NCBI GenBank assembly: GCA_965262245.1
Contig: OZ253507.1
Location: 8,220,911-8,284,910 of the forward strand
Origin: Candidatus Marinacidobacterales bacterium
GTDB lineage: Bacteria > Acidobacteriota > Vicinamibacteria > Marinacidobacterales > SMYC01
Reading direction: 5' to 3'
Length of the DNA: 64,000 nt
Made by a program: the position numbers and the translations under genes. The notes beneath the pieces are model-generated. The model was not told where the DNA came from, did no database searches, and was given only the letters and a program-made list of their open reading frames with translations. Below are positions 18,583 to 52,115 of the stretch, in pieces (positions within the stretch are counted from its first letter, which is position 1; each line of letters begins with the position of its first letter).

Positions 18583-19645
18583 GGTGCTTCCGCAATCGAG
18601 TGTTGGCAGCCGCCGCGTAACCCGCTCGCATGCTAGAGTTGGAGCCTGATTTCGAGAGACACAGTTCTTTCGTCGACAAGGCCCACGTGAAGTGAATCCC
18701 TAAGCTGTCTCAACCCCGAGTGTCCGCCGTATGAAGCGGAAGCACCGGCACACGCAGGACCCTAGCATTCAAATGCCTCGAGACGGCGTAGCAACACTTA
18801 ATGGCAGAAGCACCGCTGTACTGGTGCTTCCGCCATCAAGTGATGGGATGGACTCCTCCGCTGACATAGACGGCATCGTGCCAAAGTCAGTCGAAAGAAC
18901 GCATCGAAAAAGGAGGAGTCCGAATGAAAGATACGACGATCGCTGTGGGTTGTTGTTTTTTACATTGAATCGCGAAGATTTCTCATTCGTGATTCACCTC
19001 GACCGGCAACCACGTACGAGCAGAAGACGGGAGGCGCAGACGGGGTCAAGGGCGCGTAGCGGCTCGCGTAGCGAGCGAACCCTGGACGCCGTCGAGCACT
19101 CCCGTACCCTCATGGAGTGGTGGCCGTTCTTGATATTTCATCGCGGTGGATTACGGATTAAAGTGATAAACAACATGGGTCTTGCAAAGAACGTCTTCGA
19201 GATTGCCATCTCGCGCGAAGCGGGGAAGGTGTCCAAGCAACTCCGTGTGAGTCGACCCAAGTTGGTGTCGTTTTTTGCGAAACAGAGCGCTGCCACCGTG
19301 CTTCTCGAAGCCTGCGGCTCGGCTCACTTCTGGGCAAGGACGTTGCGACGGTTGGGACACGACGTCGTCCTGCTCCCCGTCCTGTGCCAAAACTCCGCCC
19401 TTTTGAAATAGGCCATAAATCAGCAGCTTAGTGTCCGTGTTTGTCCCCGGGCCAACGAAACGCCAGCCGATGAGACTCTTTAGAAGGGCTGAACGGGCCT
19501 CATTTTCGGTTTTGGTCTCGAATCTCGATTTCCGAGGGACACGTTTGCGCCAAATAGGAGAGCGGGCGCTGACCGGGGGCCGTGCGGCAGCGGAAAAGAG
19601 GCCACCCGAGAGGCCCAGAATCGAGGCCGGGGCTATCGCAGCTTA
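18583..19645. repeat. mosaic repeat cluster, copy 2 (F2, F3, F5, family-A terminal repeat, R4)
   Basis: Nucleotide matches to 2395-4050 and 31535-32730. Confidence 0.6.
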
Positions 19646-19997
19646 GCGTACGCTTTCCCAGTCAGTCCAGATTCTGCGCAACAGCACCCAAAACCCGCGG
19701 TCGACATTCGAGAGCCGCGGCCGTTTTACCGAACGACGGAGGACGGCAAGCTGGTGCCGAAGAGCGACTTTCTCGAGAGCCAGTTCGCGACGAGCCTTAA
19801 AAGCAGAGATGAGAGCGGAAACCAACGACGAAATCATGCCGGCATGGTGCCGGCAGACCGGAGATTAATCAAGTTCGGGGCGCGCGGATGAATAAATAGA
19901 AGGCACACCTCGCTCCAACTCTTGACAATAGCTCCGTGACCACCACGGCTGATTCAATACTCGAAGCCGCCAGTCTTCCACCAGAACACTTCGGATT

Positions 19998-20420
19998 TTA
20001 GTAGACAACTCCCAGTTTCTGCGAGGCGCAACCCTGGCAAATGGCTCGACTATGCATCCACTCTGGCGGATTCCGCTCGTTGCAGAGCTTACACTTACGG
20101 AACCGTTGCCGCCGTCGCCTCCTGGTTACCTTAACCAATGCGGAGAGCAGCCGTTTTAGGTCCGTCCCTGATAACCCTGATAACCCGGCCAGACGAATGT
20201 CGCCCAACGGAGCGTGTCTCTCGACCGGAGTGCCGGGTCCCTGCCATTCGATGGCATACTCAAAGACGCTGACCCTCTCTTTGCTGACCGTGACAACGAC
20301 CTCGCCCGGGTCCCCAGCGATCAGCTGAGTTGTTCCGTCCGGAGAGGCTTCCTCACGGAGTGGCTTCCCCATGACGACACGGACGATATCGAGAGTTCGT
20401 TCCTTGACTCCAGCCTCCAC
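19998..20420 (-). CDS. hypothetical 140-aa protein with Cys-rich C-terminus
   Basis: Open frame only; RFRKCKLCNERNPPEWMHSRAICQGCA may be a zinc finger. No good RBS. Confidence 0.25.
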   Translation of the reverse strand: MEAGVKERTLDIVRVVMGKPLREEASPDGTTQLIAGDPGEVVVTVSKERVSVFEYAIEWQGPGTPVERHAPLGDIRLAGLSGLSGTDLKRLLSALVKVTRRRRRQRFRKCKLCNERNPPEWMHSRAICQGCASQKLGVVY

Positions 20421-20429
20421 AACTGCGAG

Positions 20430-22270
20430 CTCCTGCGCCTAATAGTACTCCTGTTCACACCCCGTCCTGTGCCAAAACTCGGCCTTTTTGAAATAGACCA
20501 TAAATCAGCAGCTTGGTGTCTGTGTTTGCGACCGGGCCAAGGGCCGTAGGCTTTACAATCGTCTGGCCCGAGGGAGCCTCTCCAAGTTCATAAGACGCAG
20601 GTGGCGTCGTCGGGTCGCGGCGCGAAGCAGCTGATCATGGCAGGTATAAACCGCGCAATGAACGCTGGATAGACTTTTTGCGGAGCACAGGTTCCGAAAG
20701 CAACCGCCGCGCCGCTGCCAGGAGTCGATCCTTCCAGGCAACACGTTCCCGCCAGTGGTCGGGGATAGCGTTCAGGCCGTAGAGGGCGCCGGCGAGCTGC
20801 CCCGTCACTGCTGCTACCGTATCGGCGTCGTCGGCCAGGTTGGCCGCGAGCAGCACCGCGCCGCGGAAGTCTCCGGTGCGGGCGACTGACCAGATGGCGG
20901 CTTCGAGCGTGTGAACGACGTACCCGCTGGAGCGGATCGTATCCCGTGTCCGTCCTCGCCAGCTGCCGGCTATGACCTGAGTGATTGCCGCCGCTCCCGT
21001 GAACCGTCTCGGAGCCAGAACGTCCGAGAACGGTGACCCGGCGATGGCGTCTGCCAGGAGTGCGCCGAACGCCCGGCAGGCGTCCACTGCTTCCTCGGCT
21101 CCGTGGGTCGTCCGGGACTGGTCGGCGGCTGCTGCGAGCAGGCGCGGCCGGTCGTGCCTGAACCGGAGCGCAACGGGGGCGAGCCGCATCAGCGAGCCGT
21201 TGCCTGCGCTCCAGGGATCGGTCGAACCCGCGACCGGGTCACCCGTCCGTAGGTACCGGGTGAGCGCTTGGCAGGTCGTGTTTCCGATGTCGAAGCAGTC
21301 TCCGCTCCACGAGTAGTCTCCGTCTCGCCACCACTTCACGAAACGGTCCATCAGGTCCCGGCAGTCGAGCGTCTTGGATTCCGCCAGGCTGTCGGCAAGG
21401 GCCAGCGCCATGGCCGTGTCGTCGGTCCAGGCACCGGCCGGCAGATCGAACGGGCCGCCACCGACCATGTCTTCTAGACGCGGCTGCGTATCGCGAGAGC
21501 AGAATTCGAGCGTCGTGCCGACCGCGTCGCCCACCGCCAGACCGAGGAAGGCCCCGAGCGCCCGGTCGTGAATGTCGTCCGCGGTCCGGGATGGAACCGA
21601 TGGTGCTTGTGCCGAACACTGCCTCACGTGGGCCAGCTGGGAGTCGTTCTCGATGGTCCCTTCGTGGGCGTCGCGCACGCGGCGGATCGCATCGTCCGGT
21701 TGCACGCCCAACTCCACCAGCAGGCGGGCTGTGATGGTCCCGGCGCGTCCCAGACCACCCCGGCAGTGGAGCAGCACGTCGAAGCCGAGCCGCAGCCGGT
21801 TCCTGATGGACTCACCGGTGGCCTTCCAGGCGTGCTCGAAGTCCTGTTCCGGTGCCTCTCCGTCGGGAATCGGGGCATGCCACCACTCCATGTGCCGGTC
21901 TCGAACCGCCCTCGGGAGATCGTGCACCTTTAGATAGGCGATTTCTTCGTGGGTGATCAGGCTGACCACCGCAGTCGCTTCCCAGCGCTGAATCGCGTCG
22001 AGGTCGGTGTCGAGATCCCGCTTCCAGGGCCCGGATATTGCGTAGCGATCGATCCTACCGGGGCACTGCGAGAAGCCGATCCGGCCCCGGCCGTCGCCCA
22101 GGGTCATCGCCGTGATGCGGAGTGGGTGGCTCTCGCTGGTTCTTGCCGTCGGCATGGACTCTATTCTCTAACGGGGCTGTGCTCCGCAAAAAAGAAGATT
22201 GGCCAGAAGCAGCCAAACATAGTAGGTCTAGAACGTGCAATCAACGCCGGATCGATTTATTGCGGAGCAC
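20430..22270. repeat. 1.8-kb direct repeat (segmental duplication), copy 1, carrying the PTP-ARH gene
   Basis: Near-identical to 29790..31510. One edge is a family-A terminal repeat and the other a palindromic TGTGCTCCGCAA element. Confidence 0.8.
20635..22155 (-). CDS. fusion protein: N-terminal dual-specificity/PTP-like phosphatase (CX5R) plus C-terminal ADP-ribosylglycohydrolase (DraG/ARH family), copy 1
   Basis: VLLHCRGGLGRAGTI is the PTP active-site loop. ARH motifs ALGAFLGLAVGDAVGTTLEF, GAWTDDTAMALALADSL, FDIGNTT and GNGSLMRLAPVAL. C-terminus diverges at the repeat edge. Confidence 0.75.
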   Translation of the reverse strand: MPTARTSESHPLRITAMTLGDGRGRIGFSQCPGRIDRYAISGPWKRDLDTDLDAIQRWEATAVVSLITHEEIAYLKVHDLPRAVRDRHMEWWHAPIPDGEAPEQDFEHAWKATGESIRNRLRLGFDVLLHCRGGLGRAGTITARLLVELGVQPDDAIRRVRDAHEGTIENDSQLAHVRQCSAQAPSVPSRTADDIHDRALGAFLGLAVGDAVGTTLEFCSRDTQPRLEDMVGGGPFDLPAGAWTDDTAMALALADSLAESKTLDCRDLMDRFVKWWRDGDYSWSGDCFDIGNTTCQALTRYLRTGDPVAGSTDPWSAGNGSLMRLAPVALRFRHDRPRLLAAAADQSRTTHGAEEAVDACRAFGALLADAIAGSPFSDVLAPRRFTGAAAITQVIAGSWRGRTRDTIRSSGYVVHTLEAAIWSVARTGDFRGAVLLAANLADDADTVAAVTGQLAGALYGLNAIPDHWRERVAWKDRLLAAARRLLSEPVLRKKSIQRSLRGLYLP

Positions 22271-22276
22271 AACCAA

Positions 22277-23119
22277 TCAAAACGCGTAACGCAGGGACAG
22301 TCGAAGCCCGTGGTTCCTCAACTTCGCCCGTGTCGGAGCCAGTTCGAGCGCCAACGGTTCCCTGCTTCCGTCACGCCATTCGACCCGGCCCATGCCTTCG
22401 CCGGTCTCTATGACACCATAATCCGTGTAACGCCAGGCAAGATCGAGCATCGTCCGCTCGCCTCCCAACGACATCCCCAGCCCGGCTGTCAGCATCCAGG
22501 TCAAACCAGTCCGGCTGGTGCCCGGAACGATGGTCGTCGTCTTCGGGAACGTCATGCGCGTCTCACCGATTGCAACTCGAGCGGCGCCGATGCCTCCACC
22601 GATGAATGGGTTGAACAGGCCGAGCTTGCGTAAACCCAATTCCGGAAGATTGACATAAGCGGCCAGCATCCCGGACAGAGAGGATAGATCCGCGGAAACC
22701 GATTGCAGGCGTTCGGGGTCTAGGAAGTTGGCACGACCATCGAAAGTGAATCGCGGCCAGTATTCAACCAGAGCCTCCAGACTCACGGTGGGCGCAACGG
22801 CGTAACCTAGCCCAAACTCAACGCCCGCAGCCGTACTGAAGTTCCCAACCGAACGGAGCGGCGCGCCGTCGCCGCCGGTACTGCAACCATAAAGAGCAGC
22901 CGGGAAAACGCTCGAACAGTCCTCGTCGGTGAATTGGGTTTCGGCCGGGCGGTCTAGGCTGATCCCTGCTCGCAGGTAGAAGTCTTCAGCCTCGGCCGTT
23001 CCGGACAGCAGCCACGCCGCGGCCGCGCTCGAAGTCACCACCGCCGCGCGGCCCCAGTGGTTCCAAAACTTTTCTGTCCGCGTGGGTGGAGCGTCAAGAG
23101 TGCGTGTCATCTGTTTCAT
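22277..23119 (-). CDS. outer-membrane beta-barrel protein
   Basis: Signal peptide ..AAAAWLLSGTAEA. Alternating amphipathic strands. C-terminal aromatic ..LRLSLRYAF. Confidence 0.6.
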   Translation of the reverse strand: MKQMTRTLDAPPTRTEKFWNHWGRAAVVTSSAAAAWLLSGTAEAEDFYLRAGISLDRPAETQFTDEDCSSVFPAALYGCSTGGDGAPLRSVGNFSTAAGVEFGLGYAVAPTVSLEALVEYWPRFTFDGRANFLDPERLQSVSADLSSLSGMLAAYVNLPELGLRKLGLFNPFIGGGIGAARVAIGETRMTFPKTTTIVPGTSRTGLTWMLTAGLGMSLGGERTMLDLAWRYTDYGVIETGEGMGRVEWRDGSREPLALELAPTRAKLRNHGLRLSLRYAF

Positions 23120-23246
23120 GATAGGCTTAACCCTAATCGCAAAAAAAGAGAGCAAAGTAGCGCGAAAGTATTGACAAAGGAGCCTCTGGGTTTATGTTTG
23201 GAGCGTTGCTTCCAAACAAAACACCAAACGACCAGAGGCCCCTATA

Positions 23247-23723
23247 GTGCGCTTGAAACTATCTCGATTTCGCCGGAACTTCAACAAGGATCTTCCGGTC
23301 GAGTTCACAGAGCAGAACCTGAGCTCGTTTGGTGGACTGGAACTGTTTTCACGATATTTGCGCCGCGTTGAGCTAAGCCGCCGGGTAGGAAAGGCGTGCA
23401 GAGGAAAAGGCATTCGGTCGGACTACGGGAGCGTCCGACTGGTTCTGGTGTTGGTTGGGATGCTGCTCGTGGGAGCTCGTCGTCTAGAGCACCTGCAGTA
23501 TGTCTGTGATGACCCGATGCTGCTTCGCTTCTGTGGGTTGAGAAGACTACCGAGCCGTCCGACGATCGTGAATTGGCTGAAGCAATTCACGGGAGAGCGG
23601 CTCAAGGGCCTATCGGAGTTGAACGGTGTATTGGTCCACGAGCAGAACGAGCGATTGGGTCTGAACCGTCTGACGGTAGATATGGACGGCACCGTGGTTC
23701 AGGCAGGCAATCAGGTTGGATAG
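23247..23723 (+). pseudogene. IS1380/IS4-type transposase N-terminal fragment
   Basis: FTEQNLSSFGGLELFSRYL...GIRSDYGSVRLVLVLVGMLLVGARRLEHL...TVDMDGTVVQAG. Truncated by the adjacent IS. Confidence 0.55.
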
Positions 23724-23776
23724 GCGGCCAAGAGAAAACCTTCGCCGAATTGCGCAGCCAGTTCGCTCTCGACGTC

Positions 23777-25112
23777 GTAGTGTGCCAAAACCCGATCGAG
23801 CGACTCCATCATTATTAGAAGGCCATTCTCGGCGTTGAGAATGCGGAGACGGCTGTCGGGAAACGAGGCGAGCTCTGATAAGGTGCCAGCCGTCGGCAAA
23901 CTGCTTGGGAAACTATATTGGCGTTAAAGTCCGCTCACGCCGCGTCTCGATAGTAATATCGGAGCGTTCCGCCGAGGCGCTCCCGACATCGGATGCGACC
24001 GTCGGACCCCAGCGAATCCTGCGCCGAGCAGATGAGCTCGTTATCGAGACCTTGATGATTCCTCTCCAGATGATAATGGGCGACGAAAGCGCGGATACTC
24101 ACGCGGAGATGATTCTCTCCCAAGGGAATCATCCGACTAAGGCACTCGCTTTTGATGGACCGCACAAAGCGTTCGGCGTAGGCGTTCAAATTCGGACTCC
24201 TCACCGGCAGCTTCACCGTCTCCACGCCGACAGCACCGAGTGTGGCGCAGAATGATGCTGAAAAGAGCGGGTCGCGGTCGTGAATGAGAAACCGCGCGTC
24301 TCGAAGAAAACCGTCAATGGCGTCGGTCAGGTTTCTGGCCACTTGCCTCATCCAATCGTCGTAGGGCTGGTGACAGATGCCCGCGATCTCCACTCGGCGC
24401 GTCTTGAGGTCGATCACGAAGAGCACGAAGTATCGAACAAGCCCGCGAGACGTCAGCACTTCAACGGTGAAGAAGTCCGTCGCAGCTATGGCTCCCCAGT
24501 GAGCCTTCAGGAACGTACTCCAGGGCATTCGTTTACTTCGTTCATTCGCGGGCTCGATCCCATGCTCAGCGAGAATGCGCTTTACGGTGTTGCGGCCGAC
24601 GTCATGGCCGAGGTTTCGAAGAGCGCCGCAAATTCTCGTATAGCCCCAGGTTGAATTCTCGGTCGCCATCCTGACCACGAGTGCGCGTATCGTTTCCAGC
24701 ACACGAGGCCGTCCTGGCCCGCGGCGCTGGCTCCCGTCGTACTTTTTCGCGATCAGTTCTTTGTACCAGCGCAACAAGGTATCGGGCGTCACGAGATCCG
24801 CGATTTCCTTCAGGCCATCCCTACCCAACGTCCTCGCCTTCGCCGCGAGCCGCCGCCGCTGCGCATCGGTAAAACGTAGTCGGCGTCCACCCAGTTGTTC
24901 CCGAAAAACGCGATTCTCTTCTTTCAGGTATTCGATCGCGTCCTGTTGGAACCGGTTGACCCATCCGGCGAAGGCCATGACGAAGAACTGCCATAGGTAC
25001 GGTTGCATGGGTCCGGATTCTAGCCGCCCATCGAGCCCGGCGGGCTTGCTCCTGGACGCTTCAACGACCTGCCAACACTCAGCATCCGGCGTTGATCGAG
25101 TTTTGGCACACT
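23777..25112 (-). mobile_element. IS481-like insertion sequence, copy 2 (about 1.34 kb; TIR CCCCGTAGTGTGCCAAAAC(T/C)CGATC)
   Basis: CGTAGTGTGCCAAAACCCGATCGAGCG at 23777 and its reverse complement at 25085-25112. TIR is related to abundant repeat family A. Confidence 0.7.
23935..25008 (-). CDS. DDE transposase (HTH plus rve), IS481-like
   Basis: 357-aa intact ORF; ..[14 protein letters not shown].. core. Confidence 0.8.
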
Positions 25113-25324
25113 ACGGGGTGGAAGGTACTGTCAAATTGAGATCTTAAGTTCGGAGCGGGCCTCTAGATAATGGGGCTGGGGCGCACCGCGTTGCCAACAT
25201 CTAGGTGTCGGATCGGCCCTGAATGCCTCAACTTGGCAGTAGCCAAAGGGATGCTGACTGAGAACAAGCGAGAGAACAAGGCAGTGTAGAATGCCTTCGC
25301 CAAACTGACCATTAGGAAACAAAA

Positions 25325-28300
25325 TTGCCTGACGAAAATGCTGATTTTGATGTAACGCCATTCAACGCGTTCATGGCCGAACGCATGCGATGGGCGGGAC
25401 TTCTTGTGACGATCCAAGAGATTGCTGAGGATAACAAGGCGCTTGTCCATGATCTCTCGACATACGATCCGACCGTGGCTGTTCCATTCTTAGCAGGCCT
25501 CCTGACCTTGCCTGACTATCAATCACATTGCCTTCGCCTTGAAATACTAGTTGCGTTGGCCGTGGCATACTGCCACGGTCGGAAGAAAGCGAATGTCAAC
25601 GAAGCGCAGCGCTGGTTCTCTCAGATCGGAAAATCGCAATGCACGGCCTCCGAGGATCCAGCCGAGGATGTCTTTGTTTCCCTCATCCAGGACGACCGCG
25701 GAGATTACCGACTCTTCGAAGGTGTTTGGGAAGAGGCGGGTTTCTATACCCAGCGCGTTCTTGATGTCATTGCGACGATGCCCGACAGGGGGCAATTTGG
25801 GCAGATCAAGAAAAGCGTTCGCGCGATGCTCACTATCTCTGATTTGGTGTGCGACAAAGCTAAATTACAACGCTATCAGCTCGGCTCCGATAAGCTGCAC
25901 TCCGCGCTGTCGCCACGTAAACTTCCTGGGCGAAATGCCCTGATCTCTCGCGTGACGGTTACTTTCGCTGAGCTCCAAGGGCGTGGGGTCACACATTCCG
26001 ATATCGAGCCATTCCTGTTTCGTCCGCAAATGAAGAAGGATCTCACTGCGCAGAAAATAGGATGCAGCTATTTGGACCGCTATCCACTGATCATGCAGGC
26101 GGACACGCATCTGACAGTCGCACTTCCCTCAGCGCTATCAGTCGCAACGCGGAACTACGCGATTGCCAGCATCATCGAAGGCGGATTGAGCAAGACTTTC
26201 GATGACAGACTCGCAAGGAACTATGCGAAATTGCTTAGCGATACTCCTTTACTCGGCGGCCCCACGGGCGCGCCTGTTCAGTGGGAGACAGTGGGTGAGC
26301 ACCGATGGTCCAATTTCGAACTCAAGGTCGACGAGGGATACTACATCTCCTATCACATCCTTCTGCCATCGATCCAAACGCACACTAATGGCGGTTTCCT
26401 AACCGATTATCAGGTCGAAGACGCTCTGTTCGAAACGCTGGAAAGGTCGATCGATGACGTTATCGCAAAATTAGCGAAGCAACGCGACTTCAAGGAAGGC
26501 CTGGTCATCCTCGTTCGCTCCGGTTGGGGAAAGGCTTGTGCCATTCAAAGTATCGAGTTGAATAATCCCAAATGGCGTTTCCAAAACATGTCCGCAGCTG
26601 ACCTTGTACGACTGAGCAGGTTACGCGATATGAACCCAAACTACTTTTGGCGCATTCAAGATGGGCTGGAGGCTGTGACGAAGGCTGGTGTGAAGATCGT
26701 AAATCTCAACGGCATCCTGAACCTGATCGGCTGGGTGCGCAGCAATGACGGCCATCTCGTGCCACACGCGCGGCTCCCCGACGGCAAGATCTCGCCTGAA
26801 CAACCATTGATGCTCACCCCGCCGCTTAACCTATTGAGGGAGGTACGGGCTGAATCCGACCGGAGTTACGACCGACACAGCTCGTTCGACAACACCGGGA
26901 CGTGGCACCATGTCCAACGTGTCTCCCCCAACCCGTTCTTTGACAGTGAGAGCAGCCGCCGCGTCTATGGCTCTATGGATGATCTGCGCAGCGGAGCCCT
27001 GACATCCGTTTACGAGGGTGCGTTTCGTCTCTGGATCTCTATTGCCACACCGAACATCACCCAAAGAGAGGTCACGTATCGCCTTTGGGAAATGGCCAAT
27101 GAATGGCTGCATCGCATCGGCGCTGCTCTTGATGCACGCGCTGAACGTGTGCCGGAGACACGCAATCTCAAAGTCTACGTTGATTTCCGAGATGTCGATC
27201 CACCCAAGGAGGTAGACGGAAAGCCGACGCCAGAGGAGCTCATTCCGCTCGGCGCAATCGAGGCACATAGCGAGCCGAACGCTTGCAAAGCCGTCTTCGG
27301 GGTCGGTTTTTTGAGGGGCTTCCTCATCGCTGAAAACGTCGCCGAACGCCTATTTGTTCGAAATCTCGTGCGAGCCTTCCTACTCCTTCTTGGTATGGAG
27401 AATGGCGATGGCGAGGCCGAGGCCGAGGCAATTGAGTCTCGCGTCGTTAAAAACAACGAAGCGCGCAGCTTTCACTTCTTCCACGCCCAGAAATTCATGG
27501 ACCATCTTCGGGATACACTGCCCGATGAACTCATCGCGATTGATCCTATAGACGATGGCACTGTCAAGATTGGACTGGGTTGGCGTGTTATTGGGAAAGA
27601 CCAAGGCAACAAGATCGAAGGACGGGAGGCATGCACCGGCTTTCTGGAGAAGGTCGTCGATGTCTTGTTGGACGAAGTCATCAACGCGCTTGCCACGTTC
27701 GACCGTCTTTCCACGCTCAAAAGGCTTGTGACCAATTATGAGAGAGCAAGCACCGAGGAAGACCACTGGACGCGAACATCGGCAGCCCTTCTCGGCCTGT
27801 ACGGGCACGATCCAGGAACCGTTGATCGCATTGTCAAGCAGATGTCGAAGTTTTCCGGTGCCCGTGTTACAAGCCGCATTTTGAGTGAAATTGCTTTGTG
27901 CGTCTGCCCTTCGGAAGGCGGTACCAAGTTATCCAGCATCGAAATGAGCAAATTGATCGCACGCGCTGCACTGGTTGTCCGTATTGGCGGCCTGTCTGAT
28001 GCGATCTATTACAATGCGCTTGCCCCGGAAATTAAGATCTCTCCATTGGGTGATATTCTTTTTCGAGATGAGTTTGGTGAATTGGTGGTTGAACCGATGC
28101 TATCCCACGTGATGGCGGACAGATTTATTGCCAATGCCCCGTTGCAAGATAAAAACTATGAAAAGCCAAGAATCGTAACTAATACGCGAGGGATAATCAG
28201 TAACGAGTTTTGGGATATCTGGAAAAGTGAAATGGGATTCGATATAGATGAAGCGCGCAGCATTATAGACGCTTTAGAGCATAGAGGCATCGCGGAAAAC

Positions 28301-29119
28301 ACTGCGATTCTTGAGATCACTCAAGACGAATATTTCCCATTGGTATGCTCGGATTCGGTCCCCAAAGACGCGGCCGCAAGGTTCTTGAGCCAATTCTCGC
28401 TTGCAACGCGCCAGCGGTGGCAAGATGTTCCCGGAGGCTTTGCGTCCAAGGATATCTATCCGTGGCGTTTTGATCGACGACTGTCTTTCATGACGCGCCC
28501 TATTTTGAAAGTAGACGACAGCGATAACCCCCTGTTGGTTATTCCGCCCGCCGCATTACGAAATGGCTTTGCCTATGTCGTTGATGCTGCCTATAGAGGT
28601 CGGCTCAACCGGTCCTTTTTTCGCACGAAGGAGATGAAAGATACCTGGTGGGGCAAGGCACGTGAAGGTCACAGCTTCAATTCTGAAGTCGCGCTGGCGT
28701 TGTCAGACGCTGGCTGGCAAATCCGAAAAAATATAGGACTTCCAGAACTCCTTAATCGCAAGATGGAGCGGGATTGGGGGGATATTGATGTACTTGCTTG
28801 GAGGTCGGATCGGAACCAGGTACTGGTAATCGAGTGCAAAGATCTTTCCCAGGCGCGCAACTATTCAGAGATCGCTGCATTGCTTTCTGACTACCAAGGT
28901 ATCGAAGCTGACGGAGACGCGGACAGGCTCAAGAAGCATCTCAACCGAGTCTCGCTGCTCCAGGAAAACCAAGAACAGCTTCAGCGGGTTACCAACATTC
29001 AGCGGCCTCAGATTGTTTCCTGCCTTGTTTGTAGTGGTGTCGTACCGATGCAATACGCAAAAATTGACGCGTTAGCGGACACGCACGTCGGTACGATTGA
29101 GAAGATTCTAGCCTTGTAG
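25325..29119 (+). CDS. large (1264 aa) uncharacterised protein with a C-terminal PD-(D/E)xK-like nuclease motif
   Basis: C-terminal ..SEVALALSDAGW..DWGDIDVLAWRSDRNQVLVIECKDL.. fits E..D..ExK. No Walker A or other known motif was found in the first 1080 aa. Confidence 0.6.
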   Translation: MPDENADFDVTPFNAFMAERMRWAGLLVTIQEIAEDNKALVHDLSTYDPTVAVPFLAGLLTLPDYQSHCLRLEILVALAVAYCHGRKKANVNEAQRWFSQIGKSQCTASEDPAEDVFVSLIQDDRGDYRLFEGVWEEAGFYTQRVLDVIATMPDRGQFGQIKKSVRAMLTISDLVCDKAKLQRYQLGSDKLHSALSPRKLPGRNALISRVTVTFAELQGRGVTHSDIEPFLFRPQMKKDLTAQKIGCSYLDRYPLIMQADTHLTVALPSALSVATRNYAIASIIEGGLSKTFDDRLARNYAKLLSDTPLLGGPTGAPVQWETVGEHRWSNFELKVDEGYYISYHILLPSIQTHTNGGFLTDYQVEDALFETLERSIDDVIAKLAKQRDFKEGLVILVRSGWGKACAIQSIELNNPKWRFQNMSAADLVRLSRLRDMNPNYFWRIQDGLEAVTKAGVKIVNLNGILNLIGWVRSNDGHLVPHARLPDGKISPEQPLMLTPPLNLLREVRAESDRSYDRHSSFDNTGTWHHVQRVSPNPFFDSESSRRVYGSMDDLRSGALTSVYEGAFRLWISIATPNITQREVTYRLWEMANEWLHRIGAALDARAERVPETRNLKVYVDFRDVDPPKEVDGKPTPEELIPLGAIEAHSEPNACKAVFGVGFLRGFLIAENVAERLFVRNLVRAFLLLLGMENGDGEAEAEAIESRVVKNNEARSFHFFHAQKFMDHLRDTLPDELIAIDPIDDGTVKIGLGWRVIGKDQGNKIEGREACTGFLEKVVDVLLDEVINALATFDRLSTLKRLVTNYERASTEEDHWTRTSAALLGLYGHDPGTVDRIVKQMSKFSGARVTSRILSEIALCVCPSEGGTKLSSIEMSKLIARAALVVRIGGLSDAIYYNALAPEIKISPLGDILFRDEFGELVVEPMLSHVMADRFIANAPLQDKNYEKPRIVTNTRGIISNEFWDIWKSEMGFDIDEARSIIDALEHRGIAENTAILEITQDEYFPLVCSDSVPKDAAARFLSQFSLATRQRWQDVPGGFASKDIYPWRFDRRLSFMTRPILKVDDSDNPLLVIPPAALRNGFAYVVDAAYRGRLNRSFFRTKEMKDTWWGKAREGHSFNSEVALALSDAGWQIRKNIGLPELLNRKMERDWGDIDVLAWRSDRNQVLVIECKDLSQARNYSEIAALLSDYQGIEADGDADRLKKHLNRVSLLQENQEQLQRVTNIQRPQIVSCLVCSGVVPMQYAKIDALADTHVGTIEKILAL

Positions 29120-29154
29120 TTTACTACGGCAGGGAACACTTTAGAACGGTACTG

Positions 29155-29481
29155 TCAAGTTTTCCACGGCCTGACGGCCACCCCGAATGACGTGGTGAGC
29201 TTCGCTTCGATCAGATCAGCTAGAAAAGGATTCACTTCGATAATTGTCGGATACACACCTAGGAACTGGCAGGCCAGTGCGGTCGTGCCCGATCCTCCGA
29301 ACGGGTCGACGCACCGCACGACGGGAATTTCACTTTCTTCAACGGCCCGGGCAATCAGCTCCGGTGCATAGGCCTCCTTGAAATTCCGCCATGTCTGAAA
29401 CGGTAGCTCGTCTGCGCCGGCGTTGGTCCCCAACGATGTGATCGTTCTTCCTTGCGTCCATTCCTCAAAGGTTACAAACAT
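29155..29481 (-). pseudogene. C-terminal fragment of a beta-class N4/N6 DNA methyltransferase
   Basis: FKEAYAPELIARAVE...VVRCVDPFGGSGTTALAC has motif I. The DPPY/NPPY half is absent upstream. Stop codon lies inside a solo IS6 end. Confidence 0.6.
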
Positions 29482-29789
29482 TACTTTCCGCCTTCAAGAC
29501 GCGATATGGACTGCGTGCGTTCCTGAGTTTCTCGTTGAGCACTGCGTCGCCGCAGGCCAAAGTCGAAGTTGGGGAACTAGCGGCTTCGTTTCATTCAAGA
29601 TAGTGGGCGAAGCGGACGTTTGCTGCGCCCGGCGGCCTATTCTAAGGATTCGACCTGTGATCCGCAAAAAAGAAGATCGCGAATTGACGGGCAGACAGCC
29701 ATGGGAGTTGAGGTCCTGCGAACTCGTCTTCGCCTCGGTGGAGATTCTGCACTCTGTCGCTGCCGGGCCACCGACGCAATAACGTGCTT

Positions 29790-31510
29790 GAGAAAGAACG
29801 CGGTGTTCCCCGTCCTGTGCCAAAACTCGGCCTTTTGAAACAGACCATAATATCAGCAGCTTAGTGTCTGTGCTTGCGACCGGGTCAAGAGCCGTGCTTC
29901 GGCTACCCACCCAACTTCTACCGGTCGGCAAAGGGTTCCGACAGCAACCGCCGCGCCGCTGCCAGGAGTCGATCCTTCCAGGCAACGCGTTCCCGCCAGT
30001 GGTCGGGGATGGCGTTCAGGCCGTAGAGGGCGCCGGCGAGCTGCCCCGTCACTGCTGCTACCGTATCGGCGTCGTCGGCCAGGTTGGCCGCGAGCAGCAC
30101 CGCGCCGCGGAAGTCTCCGGTGCGGGCGACTGACCAGATGGCGGCTTCGAGCGTGTGAACGACGTACCCGCTGGAGCGGATCGTATCCCGTGTCCGTCCT
30201 CGCCAGCTGCCGGCTATGACCTGAGTGATTGCCGCCGCTCCCGTGAACCGTCTCGGAGCCAGAACGTCCGAGAACGGTGACCCGGCGATGGCGTCCGCTA
30301 GGAGCTCGCCGAACGCCCGGCAGGCGTCCACTGCTTCCTCGGCTCCGTGGGTCGTCCGGGACTGGTCGGCGGCTGCTGCGATCAGGCGCGGCCGGTCGTG
30401 CCTGAACCGGAGCGCAACGGGGGCGAGCCGCATCAGCGAGCCGTTGCCTGCGCTCCAGGGATCGGTCGAACCCGCGACCGGATCACCCGTCTGCAGGTAT
30501 CGAGCGAGTGCTTCTTGGATTGTGTTTCCGATGTCGAAGCAGTGTCCGGTGCACGAGTAGTCTCCGTCCTGCCACCACTTCACGAAACGGGCCATCAGGT
30601 CCCGGCAGTCGAGCGTCTTGGATTCCGCCAGGCTGTCGGCAAGGGCCAGCGCCATGGCCGTGTCGTCGGTCCAGGCACCGGCCGGCAGATCGAAGGGGCC
30701 GCCACCGACCATGTCTTCTAGATGCGGCTGCGTATCGCGAGAGCAGAATTCGAGCGTCGTGCCGACCGCGTCGCCCACCGCCAGACCGAGGAAGGCCCCG
30801 AGCGCCCGGTCGTGGATGTCGTCCGCGGTCCGGGATGGAACCGATGGTGCTTGTGCCGAACACTGCCTCACGTGGGCCAGCTGGGAGTCGTTCTCGATGG
30901 TCCCTTCGTGGGCGTCGCGCACGCGGCGGATCGCATCGTCCGGTTGCACGCCCAACTCCACCAGCAGGCGGGCTGCGATGGTCCCGGCGCGTCCCAGACC
31001 ACCCCGACAGTGGAGCAGCACGTCGAAGCCGAGCCGCAGTCGGTTCCTGATGGACTCGCCGGTGGCCTTCCAGGCGTGCTCGAAGTCCTGTTCCGGCGCC
31101 TCTCCGTCGGGAATCGGGGCATGCCACCACTCCATGTGCCGGTCTCGAACCGCCCTCGGGAGATTGTGCACCTTCAGATAGGCGATTTCTTCGTGGGTGA
31201 TCAGGCTGACCACCGCAGTCGCTCCCCAGTGCTGAATCGCGTCGAGGTCGGCGTCGAGATCCCGCTTCCAGGGCCCGGATATTGCGTAGCGATCGATCCT
31301 ACCGGGGCACTGCGAGAAGCCGATCCGGCCCCGGCCGTCGCCCAGGGTCATCGCCGTGATGCGGAGTGGGTAGCTCTCGCTGGTTCTTGCCGTCGGCATG
31401 GACTCTATTCTCTAACGGGGCTGTGCTCCGCAAAAAAGAAGATTGGCCAGAAGCAGCCAAACATAGTAGGTCTAGAACGTGCAATCAACGCCGGATCGAT
31501 TTTATTGCGG
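29790..31510. repeat. 1.8-kb direct repeat, copy 2
   Basis: See 20430..22270. Confidence 0.8.
29918..31399 (-). CDS. PTP-like phosphatase plus ADP-ribosylglycohydrolase fusion, copy 2
   Basis: About 97% identical to copy 1, with a different C-terminal tail. Confidence 0.75.
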   Translation of the reverse strand: MPTARTSESYPLRITAMTLGDGRGRIGFSQCPGRIDRYAISGPWKRDLDADLDAIQHWGATAVVSLITHEEIAYLKVHNLPRAVRDRHMEWWHAPIPDGEAPEQDFEHAWKATGESIRNRLRLGFDVLLHCRGGLGRAGTIAARLLVELGVQPDDAIRRVRDAHEGTIENDSQLAHVRQCSAQAPSVPSRTADDIHDRALGAFLGLAVGDAVGTTLEFCSRDTQPHLEDMVGGGPFDLPAGAWTDDTAMALALADSLAESKTLDCRDLMARFVKWWQDGDYSCTGHCFDIGNTIQEALARYLQTGDPVAGSTDPWSAGNGSLMRLAPVALRFRHDRPRLIAAAADQSRTTHGAEEAVDACRAFGELLADAIAGSPFSDVLAPRRFTGAAAITQVIAGSWRGRTRDTIRSSGYVVHTLEAAIWSVARTGDFRGAVLLAANLADDADTVAAVTGQLAGALYGLNAIPDHWRERVAWKDRLLAAARRLLSEPFADR

Positions 31511-31534
31511 AGCACAGGGCAACAGTAAACGAAG

Positions 31535-32730
31535 CAAGCAGCCGCGGATGAATAAATAGAAGGCACAGGGCTGGCCACACGGTGCCTGACGTTCAGGGAC
31601 ACCTTCGTGTGCACGCCGACATCCTTACTAATGGCGTTCGCCGACACAGGCAGGCCAGCTGACATTAGCATTCAAATACGGCGTAGCAACACTTGATGGC
31701 GGAAGCACCAGGAAACCCACCGAAAGGCGAGTGGAATGACCAGTGTGCATCGTGGCCGACTCCTTGTATGGGATTTTGGTAAATGTCGTACAGCGAGCCT
31801 GGGCGTTACCGTACGAAATTCTACACCTCACCGCGAGGTAAATGACAGAGATGGCGGTCGTGAGTGTTCCGGAACGGATCTACAGGACAGTGCGGCGGCA
31901 CCTTCTACGTCGGTGGCATCGGACCGAAGACGCCGCGTTTCTGTACACGGCAACCAATGAGGACCCTTTCAAGTACGTAGAATGGTTCCCGTTCGGGGCG
32001 CGCGGATGAATAAATAGAAGGCACAGGATCCACGCGACAACGAAGGCGATCCAGTCCCGACCAACTTTGGGTTTGTCGTCAGTGTTGTTCATGGAAACGA
32101 GTGTTACCGAGTGATTGAAGGGTAGCAGATCCGAACAGCTAGGCAAAAAAGCGGGGCGCCTTTTTCCGTAGTGTAGCTAGGTGTTGTTTATCACTTTAAT
32201 CCGTAATCCACCGCGATGAAATATCAAGACCGGCCACCACTCCATGAGGGTACGGGAGTGCTCGACGGCGTCAAGGGTTCGCTCGCTACGCGAGCCGCTA
32301 CGCGCCCTTGACCCCGTCTGCGCCTCCCGTCTTCTGCTCGTACGTGGTTGCCGGTCGAGGTGAATCACGAATGAGAAATCTTCGCGATTCAATATAAAAA
32401 AACAACACTAGACCACTTTTGCCGAGACCGGATGGCTCCAGACTGCACCATCCGCCACCCAGTCTGCCCAATTGTGGCACTGCAGAGACGGTTGAGATTT
32501 TCCGCGCGGTTGGCGTGGGTTTTCAAGATTAGGTGTCACCAGAGACGCGCTATAAGGCCTGAACAGGCCTCATTTTCGGTATTGGTCTCTAATCTCGATT
32601 TTCGAGCGCCACGTTTGCGCCAAATTGGGGAGAGGGCGCTGACCGGGCCATGCGGGTGGCGGGAAAAGAGGCCGCCCGAGAGGCTCAGAATCGAGGCCGG
32701 GGCTACTGCCGCGTAGCTGGCCTAGCACGT
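31535..32730. repeat. mosaic repeat cluster, copy 3
   Basis: GATGAATAAATAGAAGGCACA ends at 31535 and 31995, F3 (inverted), F5 (inverted), R4. Confidence 0.6.
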
Positions 32731-33190
32731 TCTGGTCCAGGTGTGGCCCTGGCCTCCTTAATGTCCATCTTTGCCCAGGACCTGGATCCAGGTCTTCGCC
32801 CAGGGAGCGTAGCATCCCGTTGCTGGACGGTGTTTTCCCTGCGCGTGCGGAGAACCCGAATCGCCGACATCGCCTCCGACACGCCCCTGATCTGGGGCTC
32901 GCCACGGGGTGATGACGATCGAAACGGCCCAGCGCGCCAGTCTTGAGTTCGTTTGTGTTTTTGGACAGGACGGGCTTCCCGATGGTAGAAACGTAGCAAC
33001 CCGCCAAGCCGTTCACGGAAGCGCACCATAGACACTAAGCTGACACTAAGCTGCTGATTTATGGTCTATTTCAAAAGGGCCGAGTTTTGGCACAGGACGG
33101 GGTTGCGCGCCTCCGTGAACAGGAACACTTCGACCTCCAACTGATGCAGGTCTTGAGTTCGTTCGTGTTTTTGGATACGACGGGGGTCGT

Positions 33191-36040
33191 TCAGGCATTT
33201 ATTCGAGTACCTTTCCCGCCATGTACGGATGGCTCAGCGCACCACTGTTTTCGCAGCAGGTCTAGTCCACCCTTTAGACCTGGGTCGATTTGCAGTACGC
33301 TAGTAATTCCGAACAGCAGTTCGCGGTCAAGCGCCTTGCGCGTCTCGTCGCGCCACGCCTCGTTAGCGGGTAGGAACTCGCGATCCTTGAAGTCATCGAA
33401 GATCGCACGGCAGTGATCCACCTGCTCCTCCGTCAAGGTGCGGGGATCGAGCACGGGAAGATCTGGCAGCTTGGAGATCGTGAGTATGGATCGACCTTCC
33501 TGCTGTCTCGTGCCGTGCCACCAGAACAGGATCAGTCCTAGCGTCGAGTTGCACCACAGCAGTAGCGGGATCGCGTACTTCGGTTCGCGCGGGATTACGT
33601 TCGGCCATGCCCTGCCGCCGAGACACTTCTCCGGTGTGAGACACATTGCCAAACTCTGTGAGTTGAGCTGGAAGTCTCGGTTGGAATGGAGACGGGATGC
33701 CGTTCGACGCCACGTCTTGACCGCATGAGACTTCATCTTCGGACGCACTTCGCCACATCTGTCTGGCGGAACGACAAACTGCCGTTCTCGCTCAGCGTTG
33801 TGTCCCCACAACGCGGGATAGGTGGGAATTTCATCCTTGCGGATGGGGCGGATATCGAACGCACCCCGAGGCAGGGCATTGCTTGCGGGTGGCTTGCCGT
33901 TGATGTCCCTATCAACGAGCCCTCGTTCTGCAACATTCCCTAGCTGGGTGACGGCAATGCCTCCCGACGCTAGCGATTGGGGGAACACGAGCTCCCCGCA
34001 AGCTAGTGCCCGTGCTGCATTTCCCACGCTCTCGCTAAGCACTCCTGCTCCGCATGGGTCGAGAAGGCTGCCGTTAAAGGCGCTGCGGATTGCCGGAGCG
34101 TTCGACGTCCCCTGTCCTGTCTCCCTTGCAGTCAGAGCCGATTCCAGCAACCCTGCTGGCCGGTAGGACAGATTCGTGAAACGCATTCCGCCTCCGCTCC
34201 GTTTATTGGCTACGACAAGGCACTCGGCCATGCCCGTGTCTGCCGAGAAAGCCCTTGCCGTCGTCCCCGTCGCGGCGATGGACAGGATGTGGATATCGGA
34301 ATAGCTTGCCGCCAGCGCCTTTCTCGCCTTCTCCCATGCCTGGCCTCGTGCAAGTGAGGATGGCAGTACCAAGGCCAGCACGCCTCCATCTCTCAGCTTG
34401 CGGTGGCCGAGATCCATGAAGTTCGACGCCAGCCCAGCGTTGCCGTGACCGAACTCGGGCTTGCACTTGCCGAGCATTCTCGACATAGCCCTCTGTTCGC
34501 TAAGAGGAGTGCCGAATCCCGCGAAGGATGGGATCGGTATCTCGGCGTGGCCTCCCTCATGGTTTGTGGGCCTCGTGAACGGGGGGTTCATGATGACCAG
34601 ATCGCAGGAGTTGTCCTTGATCGTGACGGAATGCTCGCTACGGCTCTCCGATTCTGTACCGCCCATAGACGCGCCCGTGGCGAACAGGGAGTAGGAATGG
34701 TCGGAATCGAGAAGGTCGAGTGCTCCGATGTGTGTACTGCCCGCGCCATCGATGCCGTAGGGCATCGTGTGGATCTGGGATTTGCCGTAGGCGAGCGACG
34801 GGTGGGAGCTGGACAGCATGGAACAGGTGAGATGCGTTGCGGCGGGCATGATGTCCAGCCCGCTCAGGACGCGCTCCATCAGGGCTTGATGCAAGTCCTT
34901 GTCATCGCAGCCGGCACGTCGATAGCGCCGATACACTGCCCGCTGCGCGGCCGAGAGCAAGGCTCCCGTGCCGCAGGCGAAATCCGCAATCCGCAGCCCT
35001 TCTATCGCGACCCGGTCCGACCAGTCCACGTCCAGCTGCTCGACCGCTAGTTCGGCGAGGAGGCAGGCTGACTCGGGCAATGTGTAGAAGGTGGCCAGGA
35101 ACTTCCGACCCGTGATAAGGGTCTGGAACATCCTCCCAGTAAGGTCGTGATAGGTCGTCGCGCCCAGCTGCGCCAAGTCGGAGATGGACTCCGCGATGCG
35201 GTTCATGACCGGCGGAACCGCCTTGATCGGCAATTCCTTCACCAAATCACTGGCGACGCTGAAGATCGGCCAGTAGTTGACTTCGAGAATCGCGTTCCAT
35301 ACGCCCAGAAGCGTCCCCTTGTCGATAGATCCCGCTAACGGAACCGGCGGGATCTGTTGCTGCCTTTCGATCGCTGCATGAAACACGAAGGCCGAGACGC
35401 AGATAGCCGCTGCCATGCGCTCGGTCTGCTTGCCTTCTCCTTGGTGCAGGTCACGGGCGATCCGCGCCAGTGGGCCCTCACCGGCGTGCTCGGCCAGCAG
35501 TCCCGCCGCGTTCCGTACCACTTGTTCAAGGGCTTCCGTCCCTCGCGCCAGTTGCCGTTCCGAGAGGGACAGGTATTCGATGGCATCAGCAAGGTCGTCC
35601 ACGCCCCCCTCAAGCCACTTCCTCTCCGGCGGCCAGCGGATGCTTTCTCCCTTGGAATCCAGGTAATGCGTGGCGTAGCGCAACGCTGCGCTTTCGATGG
35701 TTTCGAGGTCACCTGTCTTGAGGCTCTCCGGCAAGACAACGGAGAGCACACCTTCGATGTCCTCTCCGGTACTGTGCAAGCTCGTCCCGAGCCTGGCGGT
35801 CGCGTCTTGATCGACCGTGTGTGCGGGGGCGAACTCCGTCTCCACGATCACTGGCTGGCGGCGAGGCGGGGCTATGAGAATGTCCGGCCTCTTGCCTGTC
35901 CCCGTGCCTGGCACAGCTTGCTGAATCACGTGGGTCCGTTCGGCGTGGACAGTGTTGTCGTTCCAGCCTGGGTTTCGTCGTCTCAGCGCACGAGCCAGCG
36001 CACCGTTCGCTTGCGGCTCCGTGTTGCGCGGGCCGCTCAT
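33191..36040 (-). CDS. gamma-class N6-adenine DNA methyltransferase with long N- and C-terminal extensions; candidate MmeI-like Type IIG/IIL enzyme
   Basis: Motif I LRIADFACGTGALL and motif IV DLVIMNPPFTR. N-terminal RPDILIAPPRRQPVIVETEF is a possible nuclease motif that lacks the canonical Lys. 949 aa. Confidence 0.6.
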   Translation of the reverse strand: MSGPRNTEPQANGALARALRRRNPGWNDNTVHAERTHVIQQAVPGTGTGKRPDILIAPPRRQPVIVETEFAPAHTVDQDATARLGTSLHSTGEDIEGVLSVVLPESLKTGDLETIESAALRYATHYLDSKGESIRWPPERKWLEGGVDDLADAIEYLSLSERQLARGTEALEQVVRNAAGLLAEHAGEGPLARIARDLHQGEGKQTERMAAAICVSAFVFHAAIERQQQIPPVPLAGSIDKGTLLGVWNAILEVNYWPIFSVASDLVKELPIKAVPPVMNRIAESISDLAQLGATTYHDLTGRMFQTLITGRKFLATFYTLPESACLLAELAVEQLDVDWSDRVAIEGLRIADFACGTGALLSAAQRAVYRRYRRAGCDDKDLHQALMERVLSGLDIMPAATHLTCSMLSSSHPSLAYGKSQIHTMPYGIDGAGSTHIGALDLLDSDHSYSLFATGASMGGTESESRSEHSVTIKDNSCDLVIMNPPFTRPTNHEGGHAEIPIPSFAGFGTPLSEQRAMSRMLGKCKPEFGHGNAGLASNFMDLGHRKLRDGGVLALVLPSSLARGQAWEKARKALAASYSDIHILSIAATGTTARAFSADTGMAECLVVANKRSGGGMRFTNLSYRPAGLLESALTARETGQGTSNAPAIRSAFNGSLLDPCGAGVLSESVGNAARALACGELVFPQSLASGGIAVTQLGNVAERGLVDRDINGKPPASNALPRGAFDIRPIRKDEIPTYPALWGHNAERERQFVVPPDRCGEVRPKMKSHAVKTWRRTASRLHSNRDFQLNSQSLAMCLTPEKCLGGRAWPNVIPREPKYAIPLLLWCNSTLGLILFWWHGTRQQEGRSILTISKLPDLPVLDPRTLTEEQVDHCRAIFDDFKDREFLPANEAWRDETRKALDRELLFGITSVLQIDPGLKGGLDLLRKQWCAEPSVHGGKGTRINA

Positions 36041-51071: not shown

Positions 51072-51072
51072 C

Positions 51073-52113: not shown

Positions 52114-52115
52114 CA

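Follow-up and report, generated by a model that had tools for sequence, protein, structure and literature searches.

Two copies of a gene that fuses a phosphatase to an ADP-ribosylglycohydrolase lie in a 64,000-nucleotide stretch of a Candidatus Marinacidobacterales genome (contig OZ253507.1; hereafter the window), where a model reading the letters alone had first described them (the original prediction). By sequence, the encoded proteins are members of the Cys-based protein tyrosine phosphatase/dual-specificity phosphatase (PTP/DSP) superfamily and of the DraG/ADP-ribosylhydrolase (ARH) superfamily, and we assign the fusion as a small PTP/DSP-type Cys phosphatase, resembling KAP, PRL and the archaeal PTPs, joined to a Tri1-like, DraG-family hydrolase with predicted activity on ADP-ribosyl-arginine. 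This composition fits the core definition of the ADP-ribosylglycohydrolase (ARG)-centric counter-ADP-ribosylation systems (Iyer, Burroughs, Anantharaman, Aravind 2022, Viruses 14:1977; PMC9503650, section 3.8), with the window genes as a putative minimal solo form; the ARG-centric system is itself a computational prediction of 2022. We lean towards reading the fusion as a counter-ADP-ribosylation module, in which the ARH domain would de-ADP-ribosylate host arginines and the phosphatase would perform a coupled second hydrolysis.

Domain architecture, relatives and distribution

Both open reading frames (ORFs) encode the phosphatase loop HCRGGLGRAGT, at residues 130–140, and a full-length PF03747 domain, and the description of two intact fusion genes held. 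In copy 1, the PTP domain spans residues ~45–180 and the ARH domain residues 195–487. PF03747 (ADP_ribosyl_GH) scored 250 and 246.5 bits in the two copies against a cut-off of 26.2, with residues 201–467 covering profile positions 1–287 of 287 (E ~5e-74). The ARH motifs GDAxG (G209-D210-A211-x-G213), WTDDT (W243-T244-D245-D246-T247) and DDxDT (D443/D445/T446) are present in both copies and invariant in an alignment of 42 family sequences, and these metal-site motifs align with their counterparts in Protein Data Bank (PDB) entry 6DRE. When the PDB was searched with the family profile, 6DRE (Tri1) ranked first at 324 bits (E 1e-95), followed by the Thermus ARH 2CWC, Listeria Lmo0067 and DraG. 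An all-alpha ARH fold is supported by an AlphaFold2 model (pLDDT 79.8, pTM 0.86) and by the Foldseek search made with it, which returned 6dre as top match (E 8e-19) and 2yzw with a target-normalised TM of 0.90 and an rmsd of 2.5.

The phosphatase loop takes the family form HC[RK]GGLGRAGT, in which H130, C131, G133–G136 and A138–T140 are invariant and R137 nearly so across the same alignment. Upstream of it, D98, within PIPDG, is also invariant and is the candidate general acid. Pfam placed the domain in PTP-SAK (36.3 and 37.6 bits) and in Tc-R-P (30.5 and 31.7 bits), both with a gathering score of 27, while DSPc stayed below its cut-off (23 versus 33.5 bits). The closest solved relatives are Tk-PTP (5Z59), ShufPTP, SsoPTP, PRL, KAP/CDKN3 and DUSP23, with E values of 1e-14 to 1e-8 for Tk-PTP, PRL and KAP. 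Like the small Cys-based PTP/DSP enzymes (Tk-PTP 5Z59, SsoPTP 2I6I, PRL/PTP4A, KAP/CDKN3 1FPZ, DUSP23), the window domain is ~150 residues long and has an HCX5R(S/T) P-loop preceded by an invariant Asp; unlike them, it is permanently fused to an ARH domain and has weak Pfam scores (36–38 bits) to PTP-SAK/Tc-R-P.

Among characterised proteins, the closest relative of the ARH domain is Tri1 (Serratia proteamaculans type VI secretion system (T6SS), toxin Tre1; 6DRE/6DRH; NCBIfam NF041672), which shares its fold and metal-site motifs. The fusion scored 370.6 bits with NF041672 against an equivalog cut-off of 490, and the aligned part begins at position 52 of the profile (residue 181 of the protein); the N-terminal extension with which Tri1 occludes its toxin is replaced by the phosphatase domain. 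DraG belongs to the same superfamily and has the same fold (TIGR02662, 164 bits; PDB 2WOC, 158 bits), but the fusion lies far below the equivalog cut-off of 337, carries the phosphatase in addition and has no DraT or nif context. As its scores fall under the cut-offs, the N-terminal extension is missing and no partner ADP-ribosyltransferase (ART) was found, the fusion is an equivalog of neither protein. The search for an ART covered the 18 window ORFs of at least 180 residues between 11.9 and 46 kb (Pfam; shorter ORFs further out were not exhaustively scanned) and the clustered neighbours of 48 non-redundant full-length homologue loci (labelled L001 onwards); no ART appeared among the former or as a recurrent neighbour in the latter, and the same two sets yielded neither an adjacent Tre1-like ART nor T6SS context. 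The suggestion that the hydrolase is the antitoxin to an ART toxin, to be sought near its homologues, thus found no backing.

ARG-centric systems are described as an ARG that has no cognate ART, shares its polypeptide with a Cys phosphatase from the rhodanese-phosphatase superfamily and is often controlled by a Nudix or WYL repressor; a Nudix or WYL-helix-turn-helix (HTH) repressor lies near ~42% of them (PMC9503650) and is thus an optional component. They are predicted to reverse the ADP-ribosylation of host macromolecules by invader ARTs, and further processing of the released ADP-ribose has been proposed for the phosphatase (PMC9503650), so that the phosphatase partner, called unexplained in the original prediction, had already been described with a predicted role. 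The window fusion likewise stands without a linked ART or sirtuin, and the phosphatase shares the polypeptide in both copies and in the best 120 homologues, with both domain orders in existence. Its distribution across bacterial phyla is patchy, as is that of the ARG-centric systems, and a predicted NrtR-like Nudix regulator lies directly upstream of fusion relatives in Alphaproteobacteria. The window copies differ in being solo genes that are duplicated and embedded in insertion sequence (IS) debris. Pfam scans of neighbouring ORFs showed no Nudix/WYL regulator, chaperone (vWA, SseB or TY-Chap), ARPP or restriction endonuclease (REase) effector, of which the NrtR-like regulator alone was searched for specifically; NrtR-like queries gave no tblastn match in the window or the Marinacidobacterales loci, and WYL was not searched separately.

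Database searches showed the fusion to be common. The best 120 database clusters are all ~490–500 residues long, with both domains present and 70–98% identity (one is named "ADP-ribosylglycohydrolase family protein [Truepera sp.]"), and at least 588 stretches of species-representative genomes encode relatives. The original prediction had set a common housekeeping enzyme of known role against its own reading; commonness is borne out by hundreds of ~495-residue homologues, and the role on record is a prediction (PMC9503650). The nearest genome is a Candidatus Marinacidobacterales metagenome-assembled genome (MAG), OZ250169.1 (8.1 Mb), with three copies within 90 kb at 94–95% amino-acid identity, and the Marinacidobacterales-like acidobacterial genome that holds the window copies would itself carry at least three or four. 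Full-length homologues at 67–78% amino-acid identity were found in MAGs of Vicinamibacterales, Bryobacterales, Trueperaceae, Gemmatimonadetes, Latescibacterota and Gammaproteobacteria, reaching at least five phyla (Acidobacteriota, Deinococcota, Gemmatimonadota, Latescibacterota and Gammaproteobacteria MAGs; loci L009–L030). Judging by their isolate names, many of these MAGs may come from sponges or aquatic symbionts. Cultured Alphaproteobacteria (Sulfitobacter brevis, Sphingobium, Novosphingobium, Methylobacterium iners, Microvirga) carry homologues at 50–58%. Identities of 67–78% across phyla are far beyond what vertical descent would leave and point to horizontal transfer; we read the fusion as a widespread, horizontally mobile single-gene module. 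The phosphatase module has 263 representatives at E<=1e-30 and occurs solo (in many cases ~185 residues), as PTP-ARH, as ARH-PTP (P0129) and in combination with DUF6508, DUF6000 or ankyrin parts (variant set P0129, P0133, P0132, P0153). That the two domains are fused in both orders is strong evidence for a functional link between them.

The genes next to the fusion vary among the 48 loci, in which four kinds of neighbourhood recur and no others. Two of these are a DUF2924 protein with a large serine recombinase (8/48 loci, two phyla) and IS110 transposases (4/48). In alphaproteobacterial loci the NrtR-like Nudix/winged-helix regulator directly upstream was counted in five cases by clustering and six by tblastn (L033, L034, L039, L041, L044 and L054), and in P0026 a relative of this regulator is either part of the fusion or adjoins it. 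Seven loci form one syntenic block with aminotransferase genes that looks vertical. Defence-type neighbours occur in single loci (PD-(D/E)XK with UvrD, a DUF4011 helicase, DruA, AAA_21 with RloB, and GmrSD; L001–L008), and integrases and transposases are also near the gene in this group; in L006 the fusion sits in a chromosomal context without element genes.

Proposed function and its alternatives

Arginine-linked ADP-ribosylation is the chemistry of T4 Alt, ModA and ModB. In the mechanism that we propose, the ARH domain would strip mono-ADP-ribose from arginines of host proteins modified by a foreign ADP-ribosyltransferase, perhaps an injected toxin or an enzyme like T4 Alt, ModA or ModB with which a phage takes over its host; the likeness of the domain to Tri1 suggests arginine-linked protein ADP-ribose as its substrate. 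The phosphatase would act on phosphate derived from released or attached ADP-ribose, or on proteins phosphorylated by the invader; a second 'eraser' activity on such proteins is equally conceivable, as the solved structures closest to the domain are those of protein phosphatases. The window genes would then represent the ARG-centric system stripped of its Nudix/WYL regulator. The conflict context provided by the neighbouring Upx and methyltransferase genes (Table 1) and the mobile-element surroundings fit this proposal, in which the phosphatase's role, its substrate and any anti-phage or immunity function are what we infer.

Several points weigh against it. No PADLOC model matches the fusion, and a literature search found no experimental study of the family (nor any literature on Marinacidobacterales). 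Around the window copies we detected no Nudix/WYL regulator, chaperones or REase effectors, which are typical of many ARG-centric systems, and the association with defence genes comes from a handful of loci, without background comparison. Arginine specificity is extrapolated from ~43–55% similarity to Tri1. The substrate of the phosphatase is unconstrained: its solved relatives are protein phosphatases, whereas PMC9503650 favours ADP-ribose processing. Finally, the strong association with mobile elements would suit element-borne anti-defence or orphan immunity equally well.

A more specific version of the proposal, which we put forward tentatively, is a single-gene 'double eraser' immunity factor that removes both arginine ADP-ribose and phosphate from invader-marked host proteins. 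Within one kind of community, where the 67–78% identical copies are seen, it would be spreading by recent horizontal transfer among at least five phyla, and in an acidobacterial lineage it would have been amplified to several copies per genome by hitch-hiking beside the A-module, a lineage-specific repeat found downstream of the gene (see below). If so, the substitutions clustered at ARH residues 277–303, which distinguish the two copies, would reflect diversified recognition of substrates or inhibitors.

The resemblance to Tri1 also leads to a different, rather unlikely reading, namely that the fusion is an orphan immunity protein which, like Tri1, reverses Arg-ADP-ribosylation of FtsZ or other targets by Tre1-type T6SS, Rhs or contact-dependent inhibition (CDI) toxins, and which members of a dense community would retain as several copies on mobile elements. 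The best ARH matches are indeed Tri1, the N-terminal domain also matches Tc-R-P, a phosphatase of polymorphic toxin systems, the missing linked ART is what this model expects, and Tri1-type ARH immunity has been described as common (PMC8120803, section 5.6). Yet the score is well short of the Tri1 equivalog cut-off (370 versus 490 bits), the match starts only at position 52 of the profile with the phosphatase in place of the toxin-occluding extension, and T6SS, Rhs and CDI genes were not seen among the window ORFs scanned or the recurrent neighbours. The conserved fusion to a phosphatase would also be left unexplained.

We regard as unlikely, and a little more so, that integrative elements and IS-rich islands carry the fusion as anti-defence cargo, erasing ADP-ribosylation (and phosphorylation) that host defences place on the incoming element or on host factors. 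This would agree with the DUF2924 and serine recombinase genes beside it in eight loci of two phyla, with the surrounding IS110, IS481, IS5, IS256 and integrase genes, with its several copies, and with its 67–78% identity across phyla. To our knowledge, however, ADP-ribosylating defences target DNA or RNA rather than protein arginine. The gene also occurs in chromosomal contexts free of element genes, such as L006, and its coupling to an NrtR-like repressor in Alphaproteobacteria suits an inducible host response (PMC9503650).

It is improbable that the fusion is a housekeeping regulator, duplicated by chance, which reverses endogenous regulatory ADP-ribosylation as DraG does: membership of the DraG/ARH superfamily, purifying selection on both copies and the conserved synteny of the seven-locus aminotransferase block would agree with such a role, but neither DraT nor another ART was found nearby (window ORFs scanned, 48 loci), the distribution is patchy with cross-phylum identity well over the vertical expectation, and the neighbourhoods are variable and mobile-element-rich, with several copies per genome.

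The counter-ADP-ribosylation reading bears on a subject, the bacterial reversal of ADP-ribosylation imposed by phages or competitors, that is almost unexplored experimentally. For its study the locus combines clear catalytic residues and natural variation between paralogues in a compact form of two domains and no regulator. As close relatives occur in cultured Sulfitobacter, Sphingobium, Novosphingobium and Methylobacterium, the prediction can be put to a direct test. Further useful outputs of the analysis are the corrected annotation (Upx, a real duplication, a truncated copy 1), the cross-phylum spread and the cultured hosts.

The two copies and their repeats

The duplication is real and not an assembly artefact. 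Exact-protein look-ups of each copy returned two contigs from other samples: one (L089, ERZ25068833) is 100% identical to window positions 27920–33399 over 5,480 nt and carries the methyltransferase, copy 2 and Upx, and the other (L090, ERZ25069191) is 99.98% identical to positions 18635–24154 and carries the IS481-like gene, the outer membrane protein (OMP) gene and copy 1. Since each copy was thereby recovered with its own unique flanks, both copies and their distinct flanks are real, and the artefact against which the original prediction had cautioned did not materialise. Features of the locus are given in Table 1.

Table 1. Positions of the fusion genes, repeats and neighbouring genes in the window
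Feature	Position	Strand	Remarks
Copy 1, PTP-ARH fusion gene	20635-22155	-	506 aa; ORF call and translation
Copy 2, PTP-ARH fusion gene	29918-31399	-	493 aa; ORF call and translation
Direct repeat arm 1	20690-22271		1,582 nt; codon 1 to ~codon 488 and 116 nt upstream including 12-mer element; blastn
Direct repeat arm 2	29934-31516		blastn
A-module downstream of copy 1	20459-20574	+	head CCCCGTCCTGTGCCAAAACTCGGCC...; outer terminus left
A-module downstream of copy 2	29808-29895	+	after 22-nt spacer following the stop
Inverted A-module	33042-33103	-	with 29808 brackets 3.3-kb unit containing copy 2
A-module copies (positions)	658, 2295, 11477, 19375, 20455, 25097, 29808, 33042		
A-module copies (further positions)	37746, 40936, 46371, 46949, 49636, 50351, 51414		
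Palindromic-ended element upstream of copy 1	22178-22271	-	94 nt; TGTGCTCCGCAA ... TTGCGGAGCACA; 12-nt inverted ends
Same element upstream of copy 2	31422-31516	-	
Diverged partial 12-mer element	20618-20689	-	77% identical; joined to copy 1 codon 488
OMP beta-barrel gene	22277-23155	-	directly upstream of copy 1; Pfam OMP_b-brl; same neighbour in L090
IS481/IS3-like transposase	23935-25008	-	inside bracketed segment; 29-nt inverted repeats at 23769-23797 and 25094-25122
Upx anti-phage protein (by profile match)	25325-29119	+	1,264 aa; NCBIfam NF042954, PADLOC Upx
N6-adenine methyltransferase-like gene	33191-36040	-	949 aa; just outside copy 2 unit; weak matches

By blastn, the two arms align over 1,583 nt at 97.35% identity, with 41 mismatches and one gap, and their longest perfect shared run is 284 bp. 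A second, separate 88-nt block of the 'family A' repeat matches at 92% (20460–20547 versus 29808–29895), and between it and the long repeat lies a non-homologous spacer of 142 nt at copy 1 and 38 nt at copy 2. The '1.8-kb near-identical direct repeats' of the original prediction are therefore direct repeats indeed, but composite, of 1,583 nt plus 88 nt, and identical to the extent given above. As a generic property of 1.6-kb repeats with such a perfect run, recombination between them could delete or amplify the intervening 7.7-kb segment, as had been pointed out, and with it Upx.

The duplication edge does fall inside the 3′ end of the gene, giving the proteins different tails. Copy 2 ends in SEPFADR and the stop, as the closest homologues end in SEPLADR, and has the ancestral tail; copy 1 diverges after SEP and continues with VLRKKSIQRSLRGLYLP to its stop, so that its final 19 residues are non-ancestral and encoded by a repeat element. 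The source of this tail is the diverged partial 12-mer element, joined at 20689/20690 (codon 488), where a half-copy of the 12-mer at 20678–20689 abuts the junction. The replacement affects the last six native residues alone, a stretch that is variable across the 42-sequence alignment. From this anatomy, the two copies would stem from repeat- or IS-mediated rearrangement in an IS-saturated island of defence genes and mobile elements, and copy 1 would have lost its final six codons at the junction with the small palindromic repeat.

Between the copies dS is 0.056 and dN 0.019 (dN/dS 0.35), neither contains stop codons, and dN/dS of the copies against sister copies is 0.17–0.53; the intact ORFs and the ratio of 0.35 indicate that both are functional paralogues. 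Of the 42 nucleotide differences, 18 are concentrated in an 89-nt patch at 21238–21326 (ARH residues 277–306), adjoining the CFDIGNTT motif; the patch also accounts for 12 of the 19 amino-acid changes. Copy 2 has the family-consensus version of the patch and copy 1 a derived version common to sister copies, and the patch could be either a gene-conversion tract or the product of local diversification. An extremely repeat-rich window and the non-native C-terminus of copy 1 might raise the suspicion of an assembly artefact or a decaying pseudogene, which is highly improbable given 41 differences and distinct unique flanks, other-sample contigs that agree with the copies along 5.5 kb at 100% and 99.98%, and two intact ORFs at dN/dS 0.35 of which copy 1 exchanges just its last six, family-variable residues.

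Repeat elements do flank each copy on both sides, as first noted, with an A-module on one side and the 12-mer element on the other. The window contains 15 copies of the A-module ('family A' repeat, head CCCCGTCCTGTGCCAAAACTCGGCCCTTTTGAAATAGACCATAAATCAGCAGCTTAG), in which ~58 nt of conserved head lead into one of at least three different interiors. Copies 40936, 46949, 50351 and 51414 share one interior, which in L001 sits just upstream of a DUF2924 and serine-recombinase pair; window positions 50577–51423 and 51591–52193 match that pair. An interior common to the flank of the recombinase pair suggests a recombination or attachment site and not a classical IS end. The weak copy at 25097 overlaps the IS481-like inverted repeat, and the motif TGTGCCAAAAC is common to both.

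In all close copies (both window copies, L001, L009, L010 and L030) the common sequence of the gene begins 11 nt before the ATG, and in copy 2, L001, L010 and L030 it includes the stop codon and continues through a short spacer into the A-module. Inverted A-modules that face outwards lie on either side of copy 2 (29808/33103, 3.3 kb) and of the genes in L001, L010 and L030; the L001 unit (A-modules 9509/11591) measures 2.08 kb and has no transposase inside. Copy 1 has the downstream A-module alone, without an upstream mate, and neither the L001 nor the copy 2 unit shows a target-site duplication in its flanks. A-modules are moreover so frequent, at 15 per 64 kb, that units may be bracketed by chance. 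The claim that the gene travels as cargo of a repeat-bounded unit is accordingly plausible and supported in part. The gene with its downstream A-module is a recurrent block in the IS mosaic, which fits passenger mobilisation or repeat-mediated recombination.

The 12-mer TGTGCTCCGCAA occurs seven times in the window against 0.57 expected, a count reached in 0 of 100 shuffles, and forms inverted pairs around ~70 nt directly upstream of each ATG (22178/22260 and 31422/31505). At copy 1 the element lies 22 nt upstream of the ATG and 6 nt past the stop of the OMP gene, and its RNA is predicted to form a long hairpin (−39.4 kcal/mol, z −4.85) with a terminator-like stem inside it; this was the sole detection upstream of copy 1, where no sigma-70 promoter was found. 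The element also occurs at window positions 29656–29667 and 40917–40928 and in L009 (7885–7978), L030 (9603–9614) and L050 (8864–8960). It was found in Marinacidobacterales loci alone and often directly adjoins A-modules, as in L030 and at window position 40917. It lies upstream of the gene in both window copies and L009; in L001, L010 and L030 its place is taken by an IS110-like end that meets the gene 11 nt ahead of the start codon, and in L050 the element is downstream and inverted. While the 12-mer proposed as a palindromic boundary is real, its absence upstream of three sister copies rules it out as a fixed boundary. We also considered the pair as a conserved operator of the gene family and rejected this: the element is lineage-restricted, missing upstream of L001, L010 and L030, and present at other places and in opposite orientation (L050, L030, window 40917). 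An Rfam search matched nothing in the repeats, a group II intron at 14427–14651 being its sole match.

Surroundings of the duplicated genes

The region is a mosaic of defence genes and mobile elements. The 'large orphan ORF' of the original prediction, which the two copies bracket, is by profile Upx, near-full-length: from its TTG start it matches positions 1–1239 of 1240 of NF042954 at 1820 bits (equivalog cut-off 1900), and the PADLOC Upx model at 1770 bits. The single-protein anti-phage system with dual PD-(D/E)XK nucleases was reportedly described by Gao et al. in 2020. Upx, a characterised dual-nuclease defence protein that acts alone (PMC13099982, PMC13601566), places the locus in a defence-island setting and has no functional link to the fusion. 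A tblastn search of all fetched homologue loci with the window Upx matched only L089, the same locus in another sample. Upx was therefore rejected as a functional partner of the fusion, and its absence from every other homologue locus makes the bracketing by the two copies circumstantial.

The 949-residue methyltransferase-like protein, immediately outside the inverted A-module at 33103, has weak Eco57I/MTS, PglX-like and type IIG-like matches and may be a divergent component of a restriction-modification or BREX-like system. The wider window is saturated with IS481, IS3, IS5, IS256 and IS110 genes or fragments, a group II intron and serine recombinases. Inverted repeats of 220 nt with 99% identity (18956–19175 and 32182–32401), made of IS110-related fragments, bracket a 13-kb segment that holds Upx and the two fusion genes and that would be inverted if the repeats recombined.

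Three further features of the window were recorded. At 37855–39468 (minus strand), a 537-residue ORF without a Pfam match lies between an IS5-type transposase and a DUF2911 gene. The group II intron is represented by a D1–D4 domain (14427–14651, plus strand; Rfam RF02005, 179 bits) and, ~2.6 kb away, by a reverse-transcriptase ORF (17293–18153, plus strand), with an IS3-type transposase in between, and is probably interrupted. At 11949–13130 (plus strand), a 393-residue protein fuses an RNase T/DEDD exonuclease to TerB, an unusual combination in a defence and mobile-element region.

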